NCBI GenBank assembly: GCA_963741805.1
Contig: CAVUJR010000059.1
Span: 9,242 to 73,241 of the forward strand
Reading direction: 5' to 3'
Source: an uncultured Chloroflexia bacterium
GTDB lineage: Bacteria > Chloroflexota > Chloroflexia > Thermomicrobiales > UBA6265
DNA length: 64,000 bases
Shown: piece by piece, positions 40,664 to 53,549 of the stretch
Layout: every line of letters starts with the position of its first letter
Numbering within the stretch: the stretch's first letter is position 1
Program-made: the position numbers and the translations under genes
Notes under the pieces: model-generated
Seen by the model: the letters and a program-made list of their open reading frames with translations, nothing else
The model's database searches: none
What the model was told of the DNA's origin: nothing

Positions 40664-43328
40664 TCATTGGGCGGCCTGGGCCTTCACGACGTCGGCGACG
40701 GCGGCGATGGCGGCGGGGACGCCGTCCGGGTTCTTGCCGCCGGCCTCGGCGAGCTCGGGGCGGCCACCGCCGCGCCCGTCGACATGCGGGGCGATGGTGC
40801 GGATGATGTCGCCGGCCTTGACGCCCTTCTGGACGATGTCCGGCGTGACCATGGCGAGGAGGGCCGGCTTGTCGTCCACGACGGTGCCGAGGACGATGAC
40901 GCCGGACCCGAGCTTGTCGCGCAGGCGGTCGCCCATCTGGCGGAGGGCGCCGCGGTCCGGCACCTCGACGCTGGCGGCAAGGACGGTGATGCCGGCGATC
41001 TCGGTGGTCTCGGAGAGGAGGTCGCCGGATTTGGCGCCGGCGAGCTGGCCACGGAGGTTCTCGATCTCGCGCTCCTGGGTTCGGAGGCGCTCCTGCAGGC
41101 CCTTCACGCTGGTGGGGACTTCCTGCCAGGTGACCTTGAGGTCGCGACCGAGGTCCTCCACGAGGCGCTGCTGGCCCATGATGCGCTCGATGGCGGCGTT
41201 GCCGGTGAGGGCCTCGATGCGGCGGATGCCGGAGGCCACGGAGCCCTCGGAGGTCACGACGAAGGGGCCGATCTCGCCGGTGCGGGAGACATGCGTGCCG
41301 CCGCAGAGCTCGCGGCTGAAATCGCCGACCTGGACGACGCGGACCTTCTCGCCGTACTTCTCGCCGAAGAGGGCCATGGCGCCGGTGGCGATGGCCTCCT
41401 GCTGGTCCATGACGGCGGTCTGGACCGGGATGTCGCGGGACACCTCGTTGTTGACGATGCGGGTGATGGATGCGAGCTGCTTCGGCTCGGGCGCGTCCAT
41501 GGTGGTGAAGTCGAAGCGCAGGCGGTCGGGCGCGACGAGGGAGCCGGCCTGGTGGACGTCCTCGCCGAGGATGGTGCGGAGGGCCTTGTGCAGCAGGTGG
41601 GTCGCGGTGTGGTTGCGGCGGATGTGCATGCGGCGGTCGGCGTCGATGCGGGCGTGGACGGGCTCGCCGACGCGGATGAAGCCCTCTTCCACCGTGCCGC
41701 GGTGGACGAAGAGATCCGGCGCGGGCTTGCGGGTGTCGTCCACGTTGACGTGGCCGGCCTCGGTGTAGAGGTCGCCGGAGTCGCCGACCTGGCCGCCGGA
41801 CTCGCCGTAGAAGGGGGTCTTGTCCAGCACGACCTCGACCTGCTGGCCGGCCTCGGCCTGATCCATGGCGCCGTCGGGGCCGAGGATGGCGACGATGGTG
41901 GCGTGCGCCTCCGTCTCGCTATAGCCGAGGAACTCCGTGCGCGGCTGGATGCTGGCGTAGAGATCGGCGCGGTCGCGGCCCTCGGCCTTGAAGGCGGCGC
42001 CGGAGCGGCTGGTTTCGCGCTGGCGCTCCATGGCGATGCGGAAGCCGTCCTCGTCCACGGAGAGGCCCTCTTCGGTGGCCATCTCGGCGGTGAGCTCGAG
42101 CGGGAAGCCGTAGGTGTCGTAGAGGCGGAAGGCTTCCTCGCCGGGGATGACGGTTTGGCCGCTCTCCAGCATCTCGCTGACGAGCGCGTGGAGGCGGGTC
42201 ATGCCGGTGGCGATGGTGCGGCCGAAGCTGGCCTCCTCGTAGGCGATGACCTTGGTGACCTGGCCCTGGCGCTCCAGCAGCTCCGGGTAGGCGCCGCCGA
42301 ACTGCTCGATGACGACGCGGGCGAGATCGGCCATGAACTCGGTCTTGATGCCGAGGAGGTGGCCGTGGCGGATGGCTTTCCGCAGGACGCGGCGCAGGAC
42401 GTAGCTGCGGCCCTCGTTGCCGGGGAGGACGCCGTCGCCGATGAGGAAGACGGAGCCGCGGACGTGGTCGGCGATAACGCGGAGGGACTTGTCCTGGATC
42501 GGGTCGGTGCCGTAGGCGATGCCGGCGAGCTCGGCGGCGCGGGCGATGATGGGCTGGTAGAGGTCGGTCTCGTACATGGTGCGGGCGCCCTGCATGAGCA
42601 GGACGAGGCGCTCCAGGCCCATGCCGGTATCGACGCTCGGCTTCGGCAGCGGGGTGCGCGTGCCGTCGGCGGTGGTGTTGTACTGCATGAAGACGTTGTT
42701 CCACAGCTCGAGGTAGCGCGGGCAGTCGCAGCCGGGGGCGCAGCTGTCCTGGCCGCAGCCCCATTCCTCGCCGCGGTCCACGTAGATCTCGCTGTCGGGG
42801 CCGTTCGGGCCGGTGGGGCCGGCGGCCCACCAGTTGTCTTCCAGCTTGAAGATGCGGGATCTCGGGGACGCCGACCTGGTCGCGCCAGATGGCGTAGGCC
42901 TCCTCGTCGTCGGGGTGGACGGTTGGGTAGAGGCGGTCTTTCGGGAAGCCGACCCATTCGGTGAGGAACTCCCAGGACCAGGCGAGGGATTCCTTCTTGA
43001 AGTAGTCACGCACGGAGAAGTTGCCGAGCATGAGGAAGAAGGTGCTGTGGGACTCGTCGCCGACCTCGTCGATATCGACGGTGCGGAAGCACTTCTGGAC
43101 GGAGCACATGCGCACGGATGGCGGGGTTTCCAGGCCGAGGAAGTATGGGGTCATCTGCTGCATGCCGGCGGTGGTGAGGAGGACGGAGGTGTCTCCCGCC
43201 GGGGGGACGAGGGAGGAGCTGGGCATGTGGAGGTGCTGCTTGGACTCGAAGAAGTCGATAAACATCTGGCGGATGTCGATGCCGGACTTCCATTGGAGCC
43301 CGAGATCGGAGGTTTGCTGGGTGGACAT
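40664..43328 (-). pseudogene. alaS: Alanine--tRNA ligase, interrupted by an apparent 1-nt frameshift near 42860 (probably a sequence artefact)
   Basis: The N-terminal 156 aa (MSTQQTSD..FFLMLGNFS..WRDQVGVPE) are in one frame. RIFKLEDNWW..CGGTHV.. through the C-terminus are in another. Confidence 0.9.
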
Positions 43329-43647
43329 GGGGGTGTCTCCGGGTGCGGTGGTGGCGTGGTCGGTGGTCGGGTTGGGCGCGGTGGCGGCGGCGTCTGTCGC
43401 GGCCTGCCGCGCTGGGTAGCCTCGGCCTCGCCCCCGAAGGATGTGGTGGTGTGGGTGGTGTCGGGGTGGCGGTCGGCGGGCATGGGAGCTCCGATGGGTG
43501 TGGCGGCATGACAAGAGGCCCGGCGTGGTGCCGGGATGCCTGCCCATTGTGCCAAAGGGGACGCATGCGCGGCAATCCGGGGCGGGATGCGTGGGGTGGC
43601 AAGGCGATCAGGATCATGGTCAATCACGTGTTTGCGGGGGTGGTTGC

Positions 43648-43703
43648 CATAAGGAAGATGTTCAGAACTCCTGTATATGGGGGTTTTGAACATCTTCCTT
43701 ATG
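43648..43703. repeat. palindromic repeat copy a (subfamily 1)
   Basis: CATAAGGAAGATGTTCAGAAC-loop(..TGTATATGGGGG..)-TTTTGAACATCTTCCTTATG. Near-identical to copy f. Confidence 0.85.
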
Positions 43704-43861
43704 TTGGGTGGTTGGGGGCGTTGATGAGGGCAGGGCGCGCCGGCAGGGGGCGAGATGGGCAGCGTCGGCGTACTCCCCGGCCACCGCGGGGCCGGGGCTA
43801 CAAGGCGGGAGATGGGTGCCGAGGCAATGACGCCGTGCGATGCGGCGATGGCTGCAAGGTG

Positions 43862-43908
43862 TCAAGATGTTCAGGTTTTGCCGTATACCGGAAACCTGAA
43901 CATCTTGA
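43862..43908. repeat. palindromic repeat copy b (subfamily 2)
   Basis: TCAAGATGTTCAGGTTT-TGCCGTATACCGG-AAACCTGAACATCTTGA followed by TTTCG. Confidence 0.85.
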
Positions 43909-43964
43909 TTTCGGGTGGGGGTTTTTGGCGTGGTTGCGGGGTTTTCGGGGTGTTAGGGCAATGG

Positions 43965-43983
43965 AGAAACCTGAGCATCTTGA
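43965..43983. repeat. palindromic repeat half-copy c
   Basis: GAGAAACCTGAGCATCTTGA equals only the right arm of subfamily 2. Confidence 0.6.
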
Positions 43984-44034
43984 CGCGCGGGGATATCGAC
44001 CCTTGGGCACCCGAAGGTGACCTGCGGATCGATT

Positions 44035-44061
44035 GGGCAGACATCAGAGTCTGCCCCTACA
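44035..44061. repeat. REP-like hairpin (GGGCAGAC-ATCAGAG-TCTGCCC + CTACA)
   Basis: Hairpin plus CTAC tail, the same architecture as the other REP copies in the window. Confidence 0.6.
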
Positions 44062-44557
44062 CAAGCGAGGGCATGGGGATGGGATGGAGGCAGGGTGCAT
44101 TCCGGTCGGGATGCGGCGGTTGGGTATCGACCTGCGGTCGATCGGCTTCGCCGGGGGATTCCTCCCTACGGTCGGAATGACGGTTTCTTTTTGGTGGGAG
44201 CAAGGTCGGCGGTCGACCCTTACCGAGAGAGGATGGCGGGGCGGGATGCGGCATCTGGGCACGGACCCCGGCCACTGCGGGCGCCACGGTGTGGCTACGC
44301 GGTGGATCTCCGGTACGGAGGGAGCCTGATTTGGTGGGAGGTATGGTGGCGCACTTTGGCGTTGCCGATGTGTATTAAGGGTAGAGGGATCTGTATGAGG
44401 TGGGTATGGGGGGAGTGTGTCCATCGCCGTTAAGGGTGTGTTTAAGGACGGGTTTGGGGTGGCTTCCCTCCCCTGCCCCTGTTCCGGGATGGCCGGGCGT
44501 TTTTCGGCCGGCGGTACGGCGGACGGGCAGAAGGACGAGGGATGTCGGGCAAGATGG

Positions 44558-44604
44558 TCAAGATGTTCAGGTTTCAGGTATATAGGAAAACCTGAACATC
44601 TTGA
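44558..44604. repeat. palindromic repeat copy d (subfamily 2)
   Basis: TCAAGATGTTCAGGTTT-CAGGTATATAGGA-AAACCTGAACATCTTGA followed by TTATCG. Confidence 0.85.
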
Positions 44605-44718
44605 TTATCGTCAATGCCCTGCCTCCCTGGCCGGTGCGTGGCGGGTCCGGGGTGGCGCTGCAGGGCGCTATGAATACCGCCCGTACAGGCGATGCCGGGC
44701 AACAGGGGCCGACATAAA

Positions 44719-44765
44719 AGAAGGTGTTCAGAAGTGTGTGTACAGGGAACTTCTGAGCATCTTGA
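44719..44765. repeat. palindromic repeat copy e (diverged)
   Basis: AGAAGGTGTTCAGAAGT-GTGTGTACAGGGA-ACTTCTGAGCATCTTGA followed by TTTTCG. Confidence 0.75.
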
Positions 44766-44859
44766 TTTTCGTCCCTGGCTTCCGGCCCTCCCTCGCCGGT
44801 GCGTGGCGGGTCCGGCGTTGGTGCGGGATCGGCGTCCTGCCCGCCATGGGTGAGCATGA

Positions 44860-44916
44860 CATAAGGAAGATGATCAGAACTCATGTATATAGGGGGTTTT
44901 GAACATCTTCCTTATG
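44860..44916. repeat. palindromic repeat copy f (subfamily 1)
   Basis: CATAAGGAAGATGATCAGAAC-loop(..TGTATATAGGGGG..)-TTTTGAACATCTTCCTTATG. Confidence 0.85.
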
Positions 44917-45052
44917 GCGACATGCTTCTCCGGCCCTTCCCTCGCCGGTTCGTGGCGGGGCATCGCTCCTGCGATGGGCGTGCGGCAGATGGCGCGGAGC
45001 CTGGCGGGCGATGGACGCGACGCTGGCGGCGAGCGATACAGGAGCGGGAACG

Positions 45053-45307
45053 ATGAGTGACGTGGACACGACGCAGGGGCATGGCGAGGGTCTGGAGCCG
45101 GTCGAGGCGGCGCAGCGGTATGTGGACGAGCGGATCCCGAACTCGGGGTGGAAGGTGGACGAGGTCGCGGGGAACATCGATTTCGGGATGGTGACGGTGG
45201 TGCTGGGGCAGTACCTGAAGTCGGGGGATGTGGAGCACCGGGCGGCGGGGAAAGAGGGTCATGGGCCGACGATCGAGGCGGCGGTGGATGATGCGTTGGC
45301 AAGATAG
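45053..45307 (+). CDS. hypothetical protein (84 aa)
   Basis: AGGAG lies 8 nt upstream of ATG 45053. Strong G/C third-position bias. No family recognised. Confidence 0.5.
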   Translation: MSDVDTTQGHGEGLEPVEAAQRYVDERIPNSGWKVDEVAGNIDFGMVTVVLGQYLKSGDVEHRAAGKEGHGPTIEAAVDDALAR

Positions 45308-45558
45308 CAAAGGACCCACAGGGCTGCACCCATGCGTAGGCGAGAACAATTCGTTCCGCCCTTCGATACGAACCCTCTGCCGACCAAGCATCACATATGT
45401 AATTTGGAGACGGGACGTCCAAACCACGAACCAAGCGAGTGGATGAGTTGGACGTCCTAGAGAGTCTTTGCTTTCACGAATGACGCAGCTAAGTACCTAG
45501 CTGCATCTATAGCAGCCGATTAGGTATGGCTCAGATCTATGCTGTTCAGATCAGATGG

Positions 45559-46431
45559 TCAGTCGTCACCCGAAGCTGGAATAGATTCGCTCATCTTTGG
45601 CGCCCCTCGTGACCGAAACCGGGTATCAACACGCTCCAGAAGCGAGCGAACGCGGCCAATGGAATAGTCGGTCTCGGTTGAGATTTCGCGGATGGATCGG
45701 CCAGATTCGTAGGCGTCCTTCAGGGTGTATGCGACTTGCTGCTGCTCGGCATCAGATAGTCTGCCGAAGAGTGGGAGTTGCGGCACATTGATCTCACCAC
45801 CCGCATAGCCCTTATGCACCTGGCCACGCGGGGCGACCTCTTCGGGGGCCTCGTCGCCCCATACGGCCCACGCGGGCTGCGGATACCGGGCAAACATCTC
45901 CAGATATGGGCCAGGTGAGCATGCCTCGATGAGCGGATATTGCTCATCGGGCTTCCGGGAATGCTCACGCTTGCGGGTCTCGATCATATTGACTTGGGAG
46001 CGTGCGGGAGCAAGGGTCCGCATGCTTCCCCGTACACCGAACAGCAAGAGTTCGGTAACGTTGCGAAAGTAGAAACCAACGCCACGACCGTCCGGTCCTC
46101 CGTCTTTACGCCTCTTTGCCCAGACGACATTTGAGACATAGCGAAAGCCCCATGCCTCCATCACCTTCAGGCCCTCGGGAAGCAACGCATTCGGTACCCA
46201 AAGGTAGAGATGGGCATTCTTCGCGATGACATCTTGCACGCGGAGATCGCAGATATCCTGCAACTCCATGGTGGAGTACCGGTCGAGGCGACGATGCTCA
46301 GGAGCAACCTTGCCGGTACGGTTTGAGAATCGCCAAGGAGGATCGGCGAGGACGGTTTGAAATCCACCTTCGACGGTCGGCAGCGGTGGAGGCGGCTGGA
46401 ACTCGCGAAGCGGCGATGCTTTCTGTGCCAT
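45559..46431 (-). CDS. MT-A70 family DNA N6-adenine methyltransferase with C-terminal HTH domain
   Basis: VLADPPWRF (DPPW catalytic motif), HLYLWVPNALL, and EHSRKPDE. The C-terminal GRSIREISTETDYSIGRVRSLLER is HTH-like. Confidence 0.85.
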   Translation of the reverse strand: MAQKASPLREFQPPPPLPTVEGGFQTVLADPPWRFSNRTGKVAPEHRRLDRYSTMELQDICDLRVQDVIAKNAHLYLWVPNALLPEGLKVMEAWGFRYVSNVVWAKRRKDGGPDGRGVGFYFRNVTELLLFGVRGSMRTLAPARSQVNMIETRKREHSRKPDEQYPLIEACSPGPYLEMFARYPQPAWAVWGDEAPEEVAPRGQVHKGYAGGEINVPQLPLFGRLSDAEQQQVAYTLKDAYESGRSIREISTETDYSIGRVRSLLERVDTRFRSRGAPKMSESIPASGDD

Positions 46432-46447
46432 GGGTTTCCCCGGATTC

Positions 46448-46475
46448 AGATCTTCAGTTTCAATGATTTAGATCT
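46448..46475. promoter_or_regulatory. pair of AGATCT palindromes 22 bp apart in the REase-MTase intergenic region
   Basis: TTCAGATCTTCAG (46448..46453) and TTTAGATCTTAGC (46470..46475) lie immediately upstream of the MTase start. Confidence 0.4.
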
Positions 46476-46502
46476 TAGCACAGATGAGCTGTACGTGCGC
46501 TA

Positions 46503-47195
46503 CTACCAGATGCTCCTACTTTGATCGAACGCATCCCGGATTATCTCGAAACCGGTGACACGGTCGGGCTCAATACCGACGACGATCAGAGGACATTCGC
46601 CTCCACCACCCAGATTGATACGTGGAACGAGCTTCTCCCAATGCGTTGTGGAAGAGCCGTATTTGACGCTTGCCGTGCGCTCGCCAGTTTTGACCGTGCC
46701 ACCGATCACCCGCTGCAACTCGGGACCGCGCGTCACGATGACGCCTACGGCCAACGCGCCCTCCCGGTGCAACGCCATGAAGTTGAGCAGGTCGCGGTCG
46801 AAAAACGGATCCTTATTGTTCCACTCCATCTCGACGGCGATACCTGGGTAAGGGTCACCTGATGACCCGACCGCGAACATGTCGATCTCATGGCCCCGCG
46901 TGGCATGGATCAGTTCGTCATCGATACGTTTTGAGATGGTGATGTTCCGCTTCCCCCACCCCCGCTGCTCGAGAAGAGAGTCAAAACGGCGAGTATGGGA
47001 AGCGCGGCTGCCGCCCCCGGAAAGGATCTCATGGACATCGATATGGAACTCTTCGAGGGCTTCACAAAGATCGCGGAAGTGATGGGGAAAAGCATCACGG
47101 AGGATGAGGTCTGCGTACCTCGTGACACCATAGGCATACCCTATCGGAAGTCCTTCGACGCTAGGTTCACGCACTACCCCTGGCGGATCAGACAT
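46503..47195 (-). CDS. Type II restriction endonuclease, BamHI/BglII-like fold (start uncertain; ORF open to 47363)
   Basis: EIDMFAV..GIAVEMEWNNKDPFFDRDLLNFMAL resembles the D...E-x-E/Q catalytic core plus following helix of BamHI (VGMEFETGN..) and BglII (LVEVQFSNYPF..). Confidence 0.6.
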   Translation of the reverse strand: MSDPPGVVREPSVEGLPIGYAYGVTRYADLILRDAFPHHFRDLCEALEEFHIDVHEILSGGGSRASHTRRFDSLLEQRGWGKRNITISKRIDDELIHATRGHEIDMFAVGSSGDPYPGIAVEMEWNNKDPFFDRDLLNFMALHREGALAVGVIVTRGPELQRVIGGTVKTGERTASVKYGSSTTHWEKLVPRINLGGGGECPLIVVGIEPDRVTGFEIIRDAFDQSRSIW

Positions 47196-47280
47196 GCCTT
47201 CAACCGGGCCTATCAGATCGTCGCTGTTCACGAAGCCACCTCTCCCCCAGATTTCCCTTGATCGGTTCCCAGCGATCTCA

Positions 47281-47709
47281 TTATGGATCCAAGAACGAGG
47301 ATACGCGAACTTTATCGGTGCTCCATCGAGGGAAGGCACCGCGTACCTGCCCTGTCCAGGCATTCGGGCTGACGAGGTTCTGGAAGAACGAGAGGCGGTC
47401 GGCGAGGTTGGTGATCGGGACGGCGGTTTCGGGGGTGAGCCGCGCGACGACGCGGACCTTCAGGCGGCAGGGAAAGTCGTCTTTCCAGATCGAGTGGGTG
47501 GTGTCCTTGTAGGGCGCGGAGACGACTTCGAGGATGCCGACGAAGCGGGAGACGCCGGTGAGGTAGCAGAGCATGTAGTCGCCGACGGCGACGCGTTGGA
47601 CCTGGCTCCAGCGGTTCTCGCGAAAGCCGGTGACGGAGGCTCCTGCGTCGAGGAACTCCTGCCACGTGCCGATGGAGAACAGGTTCAGCCAATACGACCG
47701 TGCCGCCAT
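47281..47709 (-). CDS. EVE (PUA-like) domain protein
   Basis: YWLNLFSIGTWQEF..GDYMLCYLTGVSRFVGILEVVS..FPCRLKVRVV is typical of EVE/ASCH-type PUA-like modified-base readers. Confidence 0.75.
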   Translation of the reverse strand: MAARSYWLNLFSIGTWQEFLDAGASVTGFRENRWSQVQRVAVGDYMLCYLTGVSRFVGILEVVSAPYKDTTHSIWKDDFPCRLKVRVVARLTPETAVPITNLADRLSFFQNLVSPNAWTGQVRGAFPRWSTDKVRVSSFLDP

Positions 47710-47981: not shown

Positions 47982-48027
47982 GTCGATGGGGTCGACACGG
48001 TCGTGGCTACGGCGGTCGACCCCTACG
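47982..48027. repeat. REP-like element GTCGATGGGGTCGACACGGTCGTGGCTACGGCGGTCGACCCCTACG
   Basis: Near-identical copy at 52223..52267. Related GGGGTCG..TCGACCCC hairpins at about 47795..47822 and 38374..38396. Confidence 0.8.
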
Positions 48028-48638: not shown

Positions 48639-49085
48639 ATGGCGATTCGCGCATTGCTGGATGCGAACGTCTTCATCAGTTACCTCCTCTCCCCTGACGG
48701 GTCCTCGGCGACGATCCGGACCGTAGAGGGCGCGTTTACGGGGGCGTACCAGATGTTGCTGCCCGAGGGGGTGATCGCGGAGCTGCGCGGGAAGACGGCG
48801 ACAAAGCCGTGGTTAGCGGCGCGGATTCGGCCCGAAGAGACGGAGCGACTGGTTCGGCTGCTGACGGCGGTTGCGGAGGTGGTGCCGGAGATCGGGGAGC
48901 CGTTGCCGGAGGTCGGGCGGGACCGGAAGGACGATTACCTGTTCGCGCACGCGGTGGTCGGGCGGGCGGATTTCCTGGTGTCCGGAGACAAGGGCGTGCA
49001 GGCGGTCGGCCAGATCGGCACGGTGCGCGTGGTGAGCCCAGCGGGGTTTCTCGATGCGATCGAGGGCGATGCGGCGGGCACGTAG
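48639..49085 (+). CDS. PIN-domain toxin (TIGR00305-like)
   Basis: LLDANVFISYLL, DRKDDYLFAHAV and DFLVSGDKG are PIN acidic motifs. It starts 3 nt after the antitoxin stop. Confidence 0.85.
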   Translation: MAIRALLDANVFISYLLSPDGSSATIRTVEGAFTGAYQMLLPEGVIAELRGKTATKPWLAARIRPEETERLVRLLTAVAEVVPEIGEPLPEVGRDRKDDYLFAHAVVGRADFLVSGDKGVQAVGQIGTVRVVSPAGFLDAIEGDAAGT

Positions 49086-51796: not shown

Positions 51797-52094
51797 AGAC
51801 CAGCCTCCTCGTCTCCATAACTTCATCCCGGAGGTACGGATTCCCCAGCGCATTCACGGTGATGAGGTCGACTGGCCGTCCGGTAAGGTCTTCCAGGTCG
51901 TGTTGGAGGCCAAAGAAGCGCCGGTGGATGCCGTCATCGTAGTCGCCGAGGTCGACCAGGACGTCGATGTCGCTGGTTTCGGGCTTCCATGCGTCCCTGG
52001 TAGCGGAGCCGAAGACCCAGAGGGCCTTGACGCGGTGCGTGCGGCAGAGGTCGGCGATGGCGTCGCGGTTGTCCTCGATGATGGGGGCGAGCAT
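51765..52094 (-). CDS. mntA: MNT-type nucleotidyltransferase antitoxin
   Basis: LWVFGSATRDAWKPETSDIDVLVDL (GS..DxD NTase motif). Intact. Confidence 0.8.
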   Translation of the reverse strand: MLAPIIEDNRDAIADLCRTHRVKALWVFGSATRDAWKPETSDIDVLVDLGDYDDGIHRRFFGLQHDLEDLTGRPVDLITVNALGNPYLRDEVMETRRLVYGPADAQAAA

Positions 52095-52222
52095 GGCGGC
52101 TCCTCTCGGGCGGGTACGTGTGCGCGGTTCCATGATAGCGGAGCGGCCGGCCGGGAATTGTCGCACGTGAGGCGATGACGAACATCGCCCCTACGATACC
52201 GGGGCGAGATGGGCGGACGCCA

Positions 52223-52267
52223 GTCGATGGGTCGACACGGTCGTGGCTACGGCGGGCGACCCCTACG
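52223..52267. repeat. REP-like element, second copy of 47982..48027
   Basis: GTCGATGGGTCGACACGGTCGTGGCTACGGCGGGCGACCCCTACG. It overlaps the serpin stop codon. Confidence 0.8.
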
Positions 52268-53549
52268 AGGGGTTGGTGACGCGGCCGAGGAAGAGGATGG
52301 CGCCGGTGCGGTCGTCGCGGATGGCGAAGAGGAACGGGCGATCGATGCGGAGCTCGAGGGGTTCTTTCTCCGGCGCGGGGGCGCCCTCCCCGACCATGAT
52401 GACGACGGTGGCGGCGGCGGCCTCGGTGCCGTTCTCGTCGACGGCGATGAAGGCCTTGTGGAGGACGTCGCCGATGGCGAGGGTGTCGTCCGGCGGGGTG
52501 GCGGTCGTCGGCGATCATGCCGGAGAAGTCGGCGCGGTCGGGGTCGAAGGCGTCGGTCATGCCGAGGGCCTGCAGGGTGTCGGCGAGGCTGGCGGAGGTG
52601 TCGAACTCCCATTTCGGCAGGTAGAGGTGGATGCGGGTCCAGGCGAGGGCGTCGATGGCGTCCTGCAGGGTGCCGGGGTCGAGCGATGCCTCGACGGCGT
52701 CGAACTCGCCCTCGTCCGGGAGGATGATCGTCATGCCGAAGCCGGGGGCGGCGTACGGGAGGTCGACGACCTGCATGCCGTCGAGGGCGGCGTAGGCGAA
52801 CGACTCGGTCTGGCGCATGAAGGGCACGTCGACGGGGGTGCCGTCGAGCGGGTGGAAGGGCTCGTCGGCGGTGTTCTCCTCGTCGAAGGTGTTCTGCCAG
52901 GCGCCGTAGAACCAGATGGCGTTGGCGAGGACGAGGCGGGTGAGCGCGGTGATGGCGCCTTCGGGGACGATGTCCTGGATGCGGCCCTCGGTCCCCTCTT
53001 CCACCCAGGCGTTGATGTCGTCGCGGGCGGCGTCGGGCTCGTTCCTGAAGTCTTCGAGCTCGATGCCGGCGCCGTAGGTGGCGTCCAGCGCGTCGATGAA
53101 GGCGGGGTCAAACGGGAAGGTCTGCTCGCCGAAGAGGGCGTTCGCGATGCGGAGGCCGCTTTCGGCGGTGCCGCGATCGGGGTCGGCTTCCTGGTTGCCG
53201 CGGTCGAGGAGATCGGCGGTGAGGGCGGCGAAGGTTTGTGCAGGGTGTCCGCCGGCACGGTGAAGCCGAGGGTGGTGGCCATTTGGGTTGCGGTGTCGCC
53301 ACGGGCGCCGGCGGAGGTCATGGCGAGGGCGAGGGCGATGCTGTAGGGCGAGATGATGAGGTTGCCGGAGCCGGATTCGGCGCGGAGCTCGCGGTAGAGA
53401 TCGAGCGCGAAGCCGGTGAGGCCGCTGGCGAGGGTCGCCGGGCCGGGAATCGGCTCCGGGGAGGCGTCCTGGGCGGTGGCGCGGGTCGCGATGGTGGCGG
53501 CGAGGGCGCTGGCGGCGATGAGGGCGCGGCGGTCGATGGTGTGGTGCAT
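52263..53549 (-). pseudogene. Serpin-family protease inhibitor with Tat-type signal, two apparent frame disruptions (about 53233 and 52491)
   Basis: Three pieces lie in three frames: RRALIAASALAATIATRATAQD..NLIISPYSIALALAM; FAALTADL..DINAWVEEGTEGRIQDIV..LANAIWFYGAW; and LHKAFIAVDENGTEAAAAT..IDRPFLFAIRD. Confidence 0.8.

Follow-up and report, generated by a model that had tools for sequence, protein, structure and literature searches.

The 64,000-nucleotide stretch of DNA analyzed here, hereafter the window, comes from an uncultured Chloroflexia bacterium (contig CAVUJR010000059.1, positions 9,242 to 73,241). The long spacer between its alaS gene and a small open reading frame (ORF) carries an array of hairpin-forming palindromes bounded by the hexamers AAGATG and CATCTT. 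We conclude that these palindromes are a real and statistically solid, lineage-specific family that is bound to one locus. Their role is a more tentative matter. Our favored reading, to which we assign a probability of roughly 0.4, is that they are orientation-independent, putative cis-acting DNA elements (operators, enhancers, or cruciforms). The tract would then be a control region shared by two divergent genes, with alaS read leftward and the gene of a small acidic protein read rightward from position 45053. Acting at the DNA level whatever their orientation, the palindromes would modulate both promoters, as sites bound by a symmetric DNA-binding regulator, as cruciform-prone elements, or as both.

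Distribution of the palindrome family

Copies in the window are named a, b, c (a half copy), d, e, and f from left to right, and the loci of relatives are given L-numbers. Reading the sequence and running a repeat finder returned the five full hairpins, the half copy, and the three downstream boxes that an earlier sequence-only reading had described, at the same places and far above chance (Table 1). The subtypes were also as described, with a and f 83–100% alike over the palindrome, b and d 91% alike, and e diverged, and the tract is indeed G-skewed (0.27–0.33, above neighboring DNA) and flanked by alaS on the left (minus strand, start at 43328) and a restriction-modification (R-M) pair on the right. 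Allowing at most one mismatch, the arm motif AGATGTTCAG matched 18 times in the window against 1.9 expected, and 11 of the 18 matches fell within 43656–44908. The tract had been called gene-free, and this is correct in that no ORF is conserved as a protein among relatives, but long mechanical ORFs do overlap it. Gene callers on related contigs returned nothing across the tract or only fragments of 42–60 amino acids (aa).

An exact-pattern scan of 185,579 GTDB species genomes (one per species) found 20 loci, of which one was related, namely L012, the syntenic locus of a Chloroflexia metagenome-assembled genome. The same kind of scan in JGI metagenomes gave chance palindromes only, a looser pattern in IMG/VR gave 52 chance matches, none with the 43-nt architecture described below, and blastn against plasmids and phages gave no match to the palindromes. 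Because an exact pattern misses diverged copies, we built a covariance model from 17 copies. Across 204 kb of the window and related loci, every match to this model with E ≤ 1 fell between alaS and the small ORF. With filters off in the window, the five hairpins scored 36–75 bits and the next best match 13 bits. The proposed local specificity of the family is thus upheld, and in the sequence covered, it was not a dispersed, genome-wide repeat of the repetitive extragenic palindrome (REP) or miniature inverted-repeat transposable element (MITE) kind.

Further lineages with the locus were recovered through homologues of the small ORF and of AlaRS, and the AlaRS homologues assign the source of the window to the Thermomicrobiales (Chloroflexota). 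The family was seen in about eight related lineages at 1 to 5.5 copies each, with five hairpins and a half copy in the window and L012, four and a half copy in L074, four in L066 and L075/L076, at least two in each of L062 and L065 (whose contigs end early), and one in L067. Only decayed copies were found in L073 and none in L077. Hairpins are present where alaS adjoins the small ORF (L012, L062, L065, L066, L067, L074, and L075), and both the small ORF and the hairpins are missing from L069–L072 (AlaRS identity 76–77%). Elements of the tract are conserved in related lineages. Footprinting showed that distant lineages stay alignable in only four segments: the alaS leader and promoter, the hairpins, a block of ~90 nt inside the tract, and the motif region upstream of the small ORF.

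Anatomy, covariation, and orientation

Nearly all copies have a 43-nt core that runs from AAGATG to CATCTT, and the palindromes reach 47–57 bp when stem extensions are included. Both hexamers are invariant or nearly so in the alignment of 17 copies. Other parts of the core are a semi-conserved (T/A)TCA(G/A), a TATA-centered loop, and stem positions, both inner and outer, that co-vary. The stem extends to both sides of the hexamer, to 22 pairs. The flanks (CATAAGG, GTC, AAAAG, and GGGC or CCCG) co-vary as stem extensions and contain no GTAG. Isolated or tandem half-sites occur as well, including copy c, the sequence at 43600–43623, CAAGATGGT (twice), and L074 5530–5552.

A check for covariation among the aligned copies, which had been suggested when the repeats were first noticed, gave a strong result. 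Pairing was found in 86.9% of stem cells compared to 70.2% in shuffles, a level that none of 500 shuffles reached, and 42–51% in slid controls, while 14 of the 22 stem pairs had changes on both sides. Given this excess over both controls and the two-sided changes, the palindromic, hairpin-forming character is actively kept. The loop is asymmetric (TATAnnGGG on one strand), so each copy has an orientation. The direction in which a copy points differs from lineage to lineage, and this includes the copies closest to the promoters, which are plus in the window, L067, and L074 and minus in L062, L066, and L075.

Strong stem covariation is also a point in favor of an RNA role, in which the hairpins would act on the plus strand (the sense strand of the small ORF) as stem-loops of a long leader or as several small RNAs (sRNAs). 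The stems could then be processing sites (e.g., 20–25-bp RNase III-type stems), weak terminators, or attenuators, and the C-rich boxes (CCCUCCCU) anti-Shine-Dalgarno or seed sequences. Several features of the window agree with this. The stems have 10 non-Watson-Crick pairs, every one of them G·T on the plus strand (G·U in RNA), and this strand of the hairpins folds 1–10 kcal/mol better than the minus strand, with a lower minimum free energy in all five copies. Moreover, GAUUU(U)CG follows copies b, d, and e, the motif part CGCUCCUG is complementary to the Shine-Dalgarno region of the small ORF (CAGGAGCG) in the window and several relatives, and the ends of the ~90-nt block (GGCGCACUUU and GGGAGUGUGUC) can pair in an 11-bp helix with 5 G·U on the plus strand only. 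Yet the orientation flips swap the loop for its complement between lineages, the G·T bias, which could stem from a plus strand that is G+T-rich anyway, becomes mixed or runs the other way in L062, L066, and L067, and L077 has lost the anti-Shine-Dalgarno complementarity but not GGCAC…TGC. The helix positions of the block are all invariant, with a z-score of −0.9, and no consensus RNA structure was found over the motif region; structured RNA has no significant support in either.

Signals for separate transcripts were sparse. A promoter scan of the tract found no promoter-like sites. The hairpin stems are AU-rich and 15–25 bp long, and 3–4 T follow copies b, d, and e, with no T tail on the a, f, and g types. 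The T-rich runs reported after b, d, and e are short (GATTTCGG, GATTATCG, and GATTTTCG), and their likeness to terminators is weak; a terminator scan of the tract passed only copy a. Rfam had no match in the window at the gathering score, and at E ≤ 10, the region 43300–45100 gave only chance-level matches (E ≥ 0.6), with no T-box and no Chloroflexi-1 among them. The proposal of tandem sRNA genes is accordingly not well supported, given also the orientation flips and the origin of units d and e as partial duplicates (see below). More generally, symmetric recognition at the DNA level fits better than strand-specific RNA because of these flips, the half-sites, the missing promoter and terminator signals, and the position of the hairpins upstream of a conserved motif. 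The invariant part is, furthermore, a sequence within the stem, AAGATG/CATCTT, rather than pairing alone, which also argues for DNA over RNA. Overall, we consider an RNA role quite unlikely.

Tandem duplications and the motif upstream of the small ORF

Alignment of the tails that follow hairpins d, e, and f showed significant similarity (scores of 19.5–30 vs. 11–13 ± 2.6 in shuffles). The tails after a and b do not share it; both copies are hairpin-only, and the tail of b is unrelated to the tails of d, e, and f. When the boxes of all loci were aligned, the left part CCGGCCCTCCCCTCGCCGGTTCGTGGCGGG was common to them, and only the f-type ran on into GGCAYCGCTCCTGCGATGGGCG. Since the tails are alike and only the f-type continues into the motif, the DNA that precedes the small ORF has been duplicated in tandem, and d and e are its partial copies. 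The three units thus form tandem duplications of ~150 bp, with the motif kept in f, the last one, only. A composite unit of hairpin and box had been proposed before, and it stands for d, e, and f, but its supposed size of about 100 nt does not, as the measured period is 146–161 nt.

Among the sequences that precede the small ORF, a motif with the consensus GGCAYCRSTCNTGCG is the best conserved, as seen in a comparison of 10 loci. GGCAY-N7-TGC is invariant in all of them with a variable spacer, and L077 keeps GGCAC and TGC although its spacer has changed. We propose that this motif serves the small ORF as a putative core promoter or operator. A hairpin lies 18–78 nt upstream of it in related loci.

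Retention and turnover of copies

A second recurrent position lies on the alaS side. About 25 bp upstream of the alaS −35 element is the motif AAGGYGATCAYGATCAYGSTCA, which looks like a hairpin arm with tandem GATCA hexamers after it. It is found in the window, L012, L066, L067, L068, and L074 and not in L069, L071, L072, and L073, i.e., it is limited to hairpin-bearing lineages plus L068, whose contig stops before the hairpin region. The first hairpin stands 20–24 nt from the GATCA motif in the window and likewise in L074, a distant lineage, where a copy was found at the same relative position as hairpin a. The family thus has two ancient anchor positions, one about 20–25 bp from the GATCA motif near the alaS promoter and one upstream of the GGCAYCRSTCNTGCG motif. 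Copies elsewhere arise and decay locally, with c as a truncated arm.

Turnover of this kind also fits palindromes that have no function, being locally amplified, self-perpetuating quasi-palindromes in a long, repeat-rich intergenic region. Copies would then come from replication slippage, template switching, and unequal recombination, and their arms would be matched by hairpin-templated correction instead of selection. Copy number ranges from 0 to 5.5 between close lineages, some copies are truncated, interrupted, or decayed (c; L066_3, with a 9-nt insertion; L065_1, with a 10-nt deletion; and those of L073), orientation flips, and tandem duplication produced d, e, and f. Within one genome, the copies at the two ends of the array can be near-identical with unrelated flanks (a/f in the window and g/g' in L066 and L075), and the tract also collects REP-like elements. 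However, the hexamers and the 43-nt core length are kept across lineages whose surrounding intergenic DNA no longer aligns, the two positions relative to promoters are held in distant lineages, and the family keeps strictly to one locus and to lineages that have the small ORF. It is this one-locus confinement, the retention at two promoter-side positions, the invariant patch, and the co-occurrence with the small ORF that lead us to favor function over neutral or selfish DNA. Overall, we consider neutral amplification unlikely.

Weighing a role in cis

We infer protein binding and a regulatory role for the palindromes, and several points weigh against this. The stem covaries strongly outside the hexamer, which a protein that reads only AAGATG would not require. 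This points to single-strand folding (as RNA, single-stranded DNA, or a cruciform) or to a mutational process that homogenizes the arms. Covariation over the full length of the stem is thus the main point that our reading leaves unexplained, and it suggests cruciform or hairpin extrusion, or else arm homogenization by template switching. The plus-strand G·T pairs and better plus-strand folding in the window fit RNA of that strand, with the caveat on base composition given above. In addition, no candidate regulator is encoded near the tract, and the product of the small ORF is very acidic.

Other adverse points concern the conserved motif, which has GG-N10-GC spacing like that of a −24/−12 promoter. 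The window copy has three mismatches to TGGCAC-N5-TTGC, −24/−12-type sites are not enriched in the window (31 found vs. 54 expected), and Thermomicrobium roseum is listed as being without sigma-54 and without enhancer-binding proteins. For these reasons, a sigma-54 reading of the motif is doubtful and may serve only as a lead. A search of 206 kb found no GAFTGA-type activator and no RpoN box. The sole GAFTGA match in this search, at 48729–48746, lies inside a PIN-domain ORF (48639–49085) and is a chance match, not an AAA+ activator.

A more ambitious proposal is that the palindrome array and the acidic protein, modeled with an alpha-beta-beta-beta-alpha fold, are one undescribed module at a hot spot for defense islands next to alaS. 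A dedicated factor would read the hairpins in extruded or transcribed form, e.g., for cruciform- or hairpin-dependent control of a −24/−12-type promoter in a lineage thought to be without sigma-54, or the protein would be a nucleic-acid mimic shaped like a double-stranded RNA-binding domain (dsRBD) that works with the hairpins. We regard this as a long shot. What probability the main readings leave falls to other explanations.

If the cis-acting reading is right, the palindromes would define an unrecognized cis-element and, by implication, an unknown regulator. They would connect alaS, which codes for an essential aminoacyl-tRNA synthetase, with a small orphan protein in uncultured Chloroflexota that have been little studied. 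The family is also a clean case of repeats that look like REPs or MITEs and yet are tied to one locus, with a genuine REP neighbor as an internal control. This should be useful for annotating repeats in metagenome-assembled genomes. Unless a new mechanism emerges from expression or binding data, the finding is of modest practical consequence.

Other features of the tract and its surroundings

Table 1. Features of the tract, the small ORF, and the islands beyond it. Positions refer to the window unless a locus is named.
Feature	Position	Strand	Remarks
Putative sigma-70-type alaS promoter: TTGCCG, 15 nt, TGG-CACAAT (extended −10)	43546–43575	−	Read by eye
CAAGGCGATCAGGATCATGGTCAA: half-site-like sequence and tandem GATCA hexamers	43600–43623		Between alaS promoter and hairpin a
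Hairpin a	43648–43703 (core 43655–43696)		Copy nearest alaS, 24 nt from GATCA-repeat motif; covariance model 74.8 bits
Hairpin b	43861–43908 (core 43864–43906)		b/d subtype, hairpin-only; 69.5 bits
Half copy c	43966–43984		Right arm only; complementary to left arm of b (18 nt, 94%)
GTAG-type REP-like element, GTAGGGGCAGAC…GTCTGCCC	44036–44061	−	Different, dispersed family
Conserved ~90-nt block, GGTGGCGCACTTT…GATGYGTAT…GTATGGGGGAGTGTGTCC	44344–44432	+	Inside tract
Half-site tandem repeat, CAAGATGGT/CAAGATGTT	44550–44569		Left flank of hairpin d; Tandem Repeats Finder period 9
Hairpin d	44553–44609 (core 44560–44602)		b/d subtype
Box of unit d, CCTCCCTGGCCGGTGCGTGGCGGGTCCGG	44622–44653	+	
Hairpin e	44719–44767 (core 44721–44763)		Diverged copy; 58.7 bits
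Box of unit e	44787–44818	+	94% identity to first box
Hairpin f	44860–44916 (core 44867–44909)		Near-identical to a, nearest small-ORF promoter; 71.2 bits
Box of unit f	44936–44967	+	75% identity to first box; runs into conserved motif
Best-conserved motif upstream of small ORF, GGCATCGCTCCTGCG	44958–44973	+	10 loci compared
Small acidic orphan ORF	45053–45307	+	84 aa
Island, window	45310–47590		MT-A70 + BglII-like R-M pair
Island, L062	1440–5124		AIPR + same R-M pair as window
Island, L067	3179–6847		HepT/MNT, DUF6414, R-M
Island, L063	482–1890		DUF6414
Island, L012	1381–5216		Unrelated low-GC genes

The alaS promoter in Table 1 is conserved in all 10 of the alaS upstream regions compared, and a consensus promoter scan did not list it. 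Between it and the gene is a leader of ~210 nt (43330–43545, minus strand) that is likewise conserved in all 10 and extends across Thermomicrobiales, including lineages without hairpins. It is shared by the window, L066, L067, L068, L069, L071, L072, L073, and L074, and the shared pieces are GCATCCCGGC…GCCGGG, TTGTCATGGG, GGAG…TTCCATG, and ACTTCCTTCGGSGGCGAGGCGGAGGCTACC. At E ≤ 10, neither a T-box nor any other Rfam family matched this leader, which may be an undescribed regulatory leader of alaS.

The alaS gene itself is split into two frames at 42850–42865 (minus strand). After GGC GTC CCC GAG, it reads A TCC CGC ATC TTC AAG and continues as SRIFKLEDNWW in the other frame, whereas relatives read through the site (L066: CCC GAG GAG CGT ATC TAC). 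The split could come from an indel in the assembly, or the frame of this essential gene could really be shifted. Of the differences between the window and L012, many are 1-nt indels within runs of G or C, a pattern suggestive of long-read errors. Similarly, a serpin ORF farther right (51934–53004, minus strand) matches only positions 133–301 of the 370-position Pfam model, suggesting that it is truncated or frameshifted in the assembly.

Within the tract, the ~90-nt block is kept in five lineages, with a clean 19-nt deletion inside it in L074. An ORF of 58–61 aa that starts in the block was rejected, as it is not conserved as a protein among the window, L065, L066, and L074. Ten-residue ATG…TGA frames inside the hairpins, on both strands, and longer minus-strand frames through box and hairpin were likewise rejected as coding mini-ORFs. 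Their peptides are not conserved, the frames result from the palindrome and its fixed length, and unit d is out of frame. Between the conserved motif and the start of the small ORF are a 22-nt tandem repeat (44982–45030, 2.2 copies, 75% matches, unit GCGGCAGATGGACGCGACCCTG) and an upstream frame of 28 codons (44975–45061) whose end overlaps the start codon (ATGAGTGA). Other candidate identities for the tract were also rejected: a replication origin, because there is no cluster of DnaA boxes and no skew switch at the tract; a tRNA or tmRNA integration site, because the window has no tRNA genes; and a phage or plasmid origin, because nothing related was found in viral contigs, plasmids, or phages.

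The REP-like family that shares the tract consists of GTAG plus a GC-rich hairpin, often beside a TATCGACC-NNN-GGTCGAT hairpin. Such REP-like/TATCGACC elements recur at 44036–44061, 44121–44145, 47982–48026, and 52223–52266 of the window, at L012 1122–1176, and at L068 117–140. It had been suggested to look for transposases of the Y1 or RAYT type, and one was present in a relative; the sole Y1_Tnp gene seen is RAYT-like (L073 1246–1746, 26.3 bits vs. a Pfam cut-off of 23). It is flanked on both sides by GGGCGGAC…GTCCGCCCCTAC REPs, a GTAG-type family different from the AAGATG palindromes (L073 REPs lie at 598–635, 1215–1252, and 1775–1815). This clade therefore has a genuine REP/RAYT system of which the AAGATG palindromes are not part.

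The small-ORF protein belongs to a tiny family, with 7 clusters at 50% identity and 24 at 90% among 1.84 billion proteins. Its net charge is about −9, W, Y, and EGHG are invariant, and no Lys or Arg position is conserved. It matched nothing in Pfam, NCBIfam, PADLOC, or the PDB sequences. An AlphaFold2 model (pLDDT 78) predicts an alpha-beta-beta-beta-alpha fold, for which Foldseek gave weak, non-significant matches, many of them to dsRBDs (best E 0.013, TM 0.3–0.45). Because it has no conserved basic residues, the protein is unlikely to bind the hairpins, and we rejected it as a palindrome-binding protein given its strong acidity. A second, diverged paralogue (~42% identity) is found at L012 5534–5812 (minus strand), L062 733–1008, and L077 825–1103. 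In these relatives, it sits between the promoter-like motif and the main copy, while the window has a single copy.

To the right of the small ORF follow an MT-A70 methyltransferase, a BglII-like endonuclease, a Phd/PIN pair, an MFS transporter, and the serpin. The DNA just past the small ORF is a variable hot spot with differing defense-type cargo in each relative (Table 1). L074 has no defense island, with alcohol dehydrogenase and ABC-transporter genes after the small ORF instead.

This variable neighborhood bears on the suggestion that the palindromes are sites of site-specific recombination or inversion (attC-, dif-, or invertase-like) that delimit a mobile or invertible segment or the edge of the island. 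The content of the neighboring island does differ between relatives, and nested like pairs (a≈f outer, b≈d inner) bracket segments of 1.15 kb and 0.65 kb. But a comparison of the window with L012 showed that variable DNA begins only past the small ORF, not at a hairpin, and L074 has four hairpins and no island; hence, the hairpins are not island-boundary sites. The ~90-nt internal block has the same orientation in the five lineages that carry it, with no inversion seen, the window has no integrase, invertase, or transposase close to the tract, and the GTT/AAC arms are in the opposite order to the R''/R' of attC. A recombination role, whether as sites or as scars, is thus highly improbable.

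Comparison with known systems

The sequence-only reading of the tract is partly supported: the palindrome family it recognized is real, but none of the three explanations it offered is well supported. Among known systems, the palindromes look like REPs and their clusters (bacterial interspersed mosaic elements, BIMEs) with RAYT, as both are short, imperfect intergenic palindromes that occur clustered, in both orientations, and with co-varying stems. REPs, however, are dispersed in tens to hundreds of copies, have a GTAG or GTGG head, and flank a RAYT gene. By contrast, the AAGATG palindromes occupy one locus (across the 204 kb and the one related GTDB genome covered), are headless and AT-rich with 15–25-bp stems, and do not flank the one Y1_Tnp gene seen. 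Nor do they behave like MITEs, being not dispersed and without target-site duplications; no direct repeats of this kind were found flanking a, b, d, e, or f.

Sibling sRNA arrays (LhrC1–5 and Qrr1–5) and the Chloroflexi-1 RNA motif, compared by sequence through Rfam, offer another parallel. In the LhrC and Qrr arrays, hairpin-containing units also stand side by side in one intergenic region, and the LhrC type has C-rich motifs as well. The tract differs in having no promoter and terminator pair per unit, in its orientation flips, and in that d and e duplicate the upstream region of a gene. Integron attC sites, too, are imperfect palindromes; their outer stem is conserved, their inner stem varies, and they are thought to act as folded single strands. 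Yet attC reads R''(RYYYAAC)…R'(GTTRRRY), whereas the arms of the tract read GTTCAG…CTGAAC on either strand, and neither cassette ORFs nor intI were found near the tract. Type III toxin-antitoxin systems (ToxIN-like) have near-identical tandem repeats before a ToxN/AbiE-type gene, while the repeats here are diverged and irregularly spaced, and the small ORF that follows them is acidic, with no PADLOC, Pfam, or NCBIfam match. On these grounds, the family belongs to none of REP/BIME, MITE, attC, the Rfam families, or type III antitoxin arrays.

A closer likeness is found in the activator and operator palindromes of divergent promoters, such as NtrC-type sites upstream of −24/−12 promoters. There, too, several inverted repeats stand upstream of a GG-N10-GC motif, and NtrC-type enhancer sites are also orientation-independent, variable in number, and located between divergent genes. 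Known enhancer and operator palindromes are ~16–20 bp and need no hairpin potential, however, whereas those described here span 43–57 bp, covary over their full length, and stand at a variable distance of 40–100 bp from the motif. By this comparison, the palindromes most resemble the multi-site regulatory palindromes of a divergent promoter region, albeit unusually long ones whose hairpin potential is kept.

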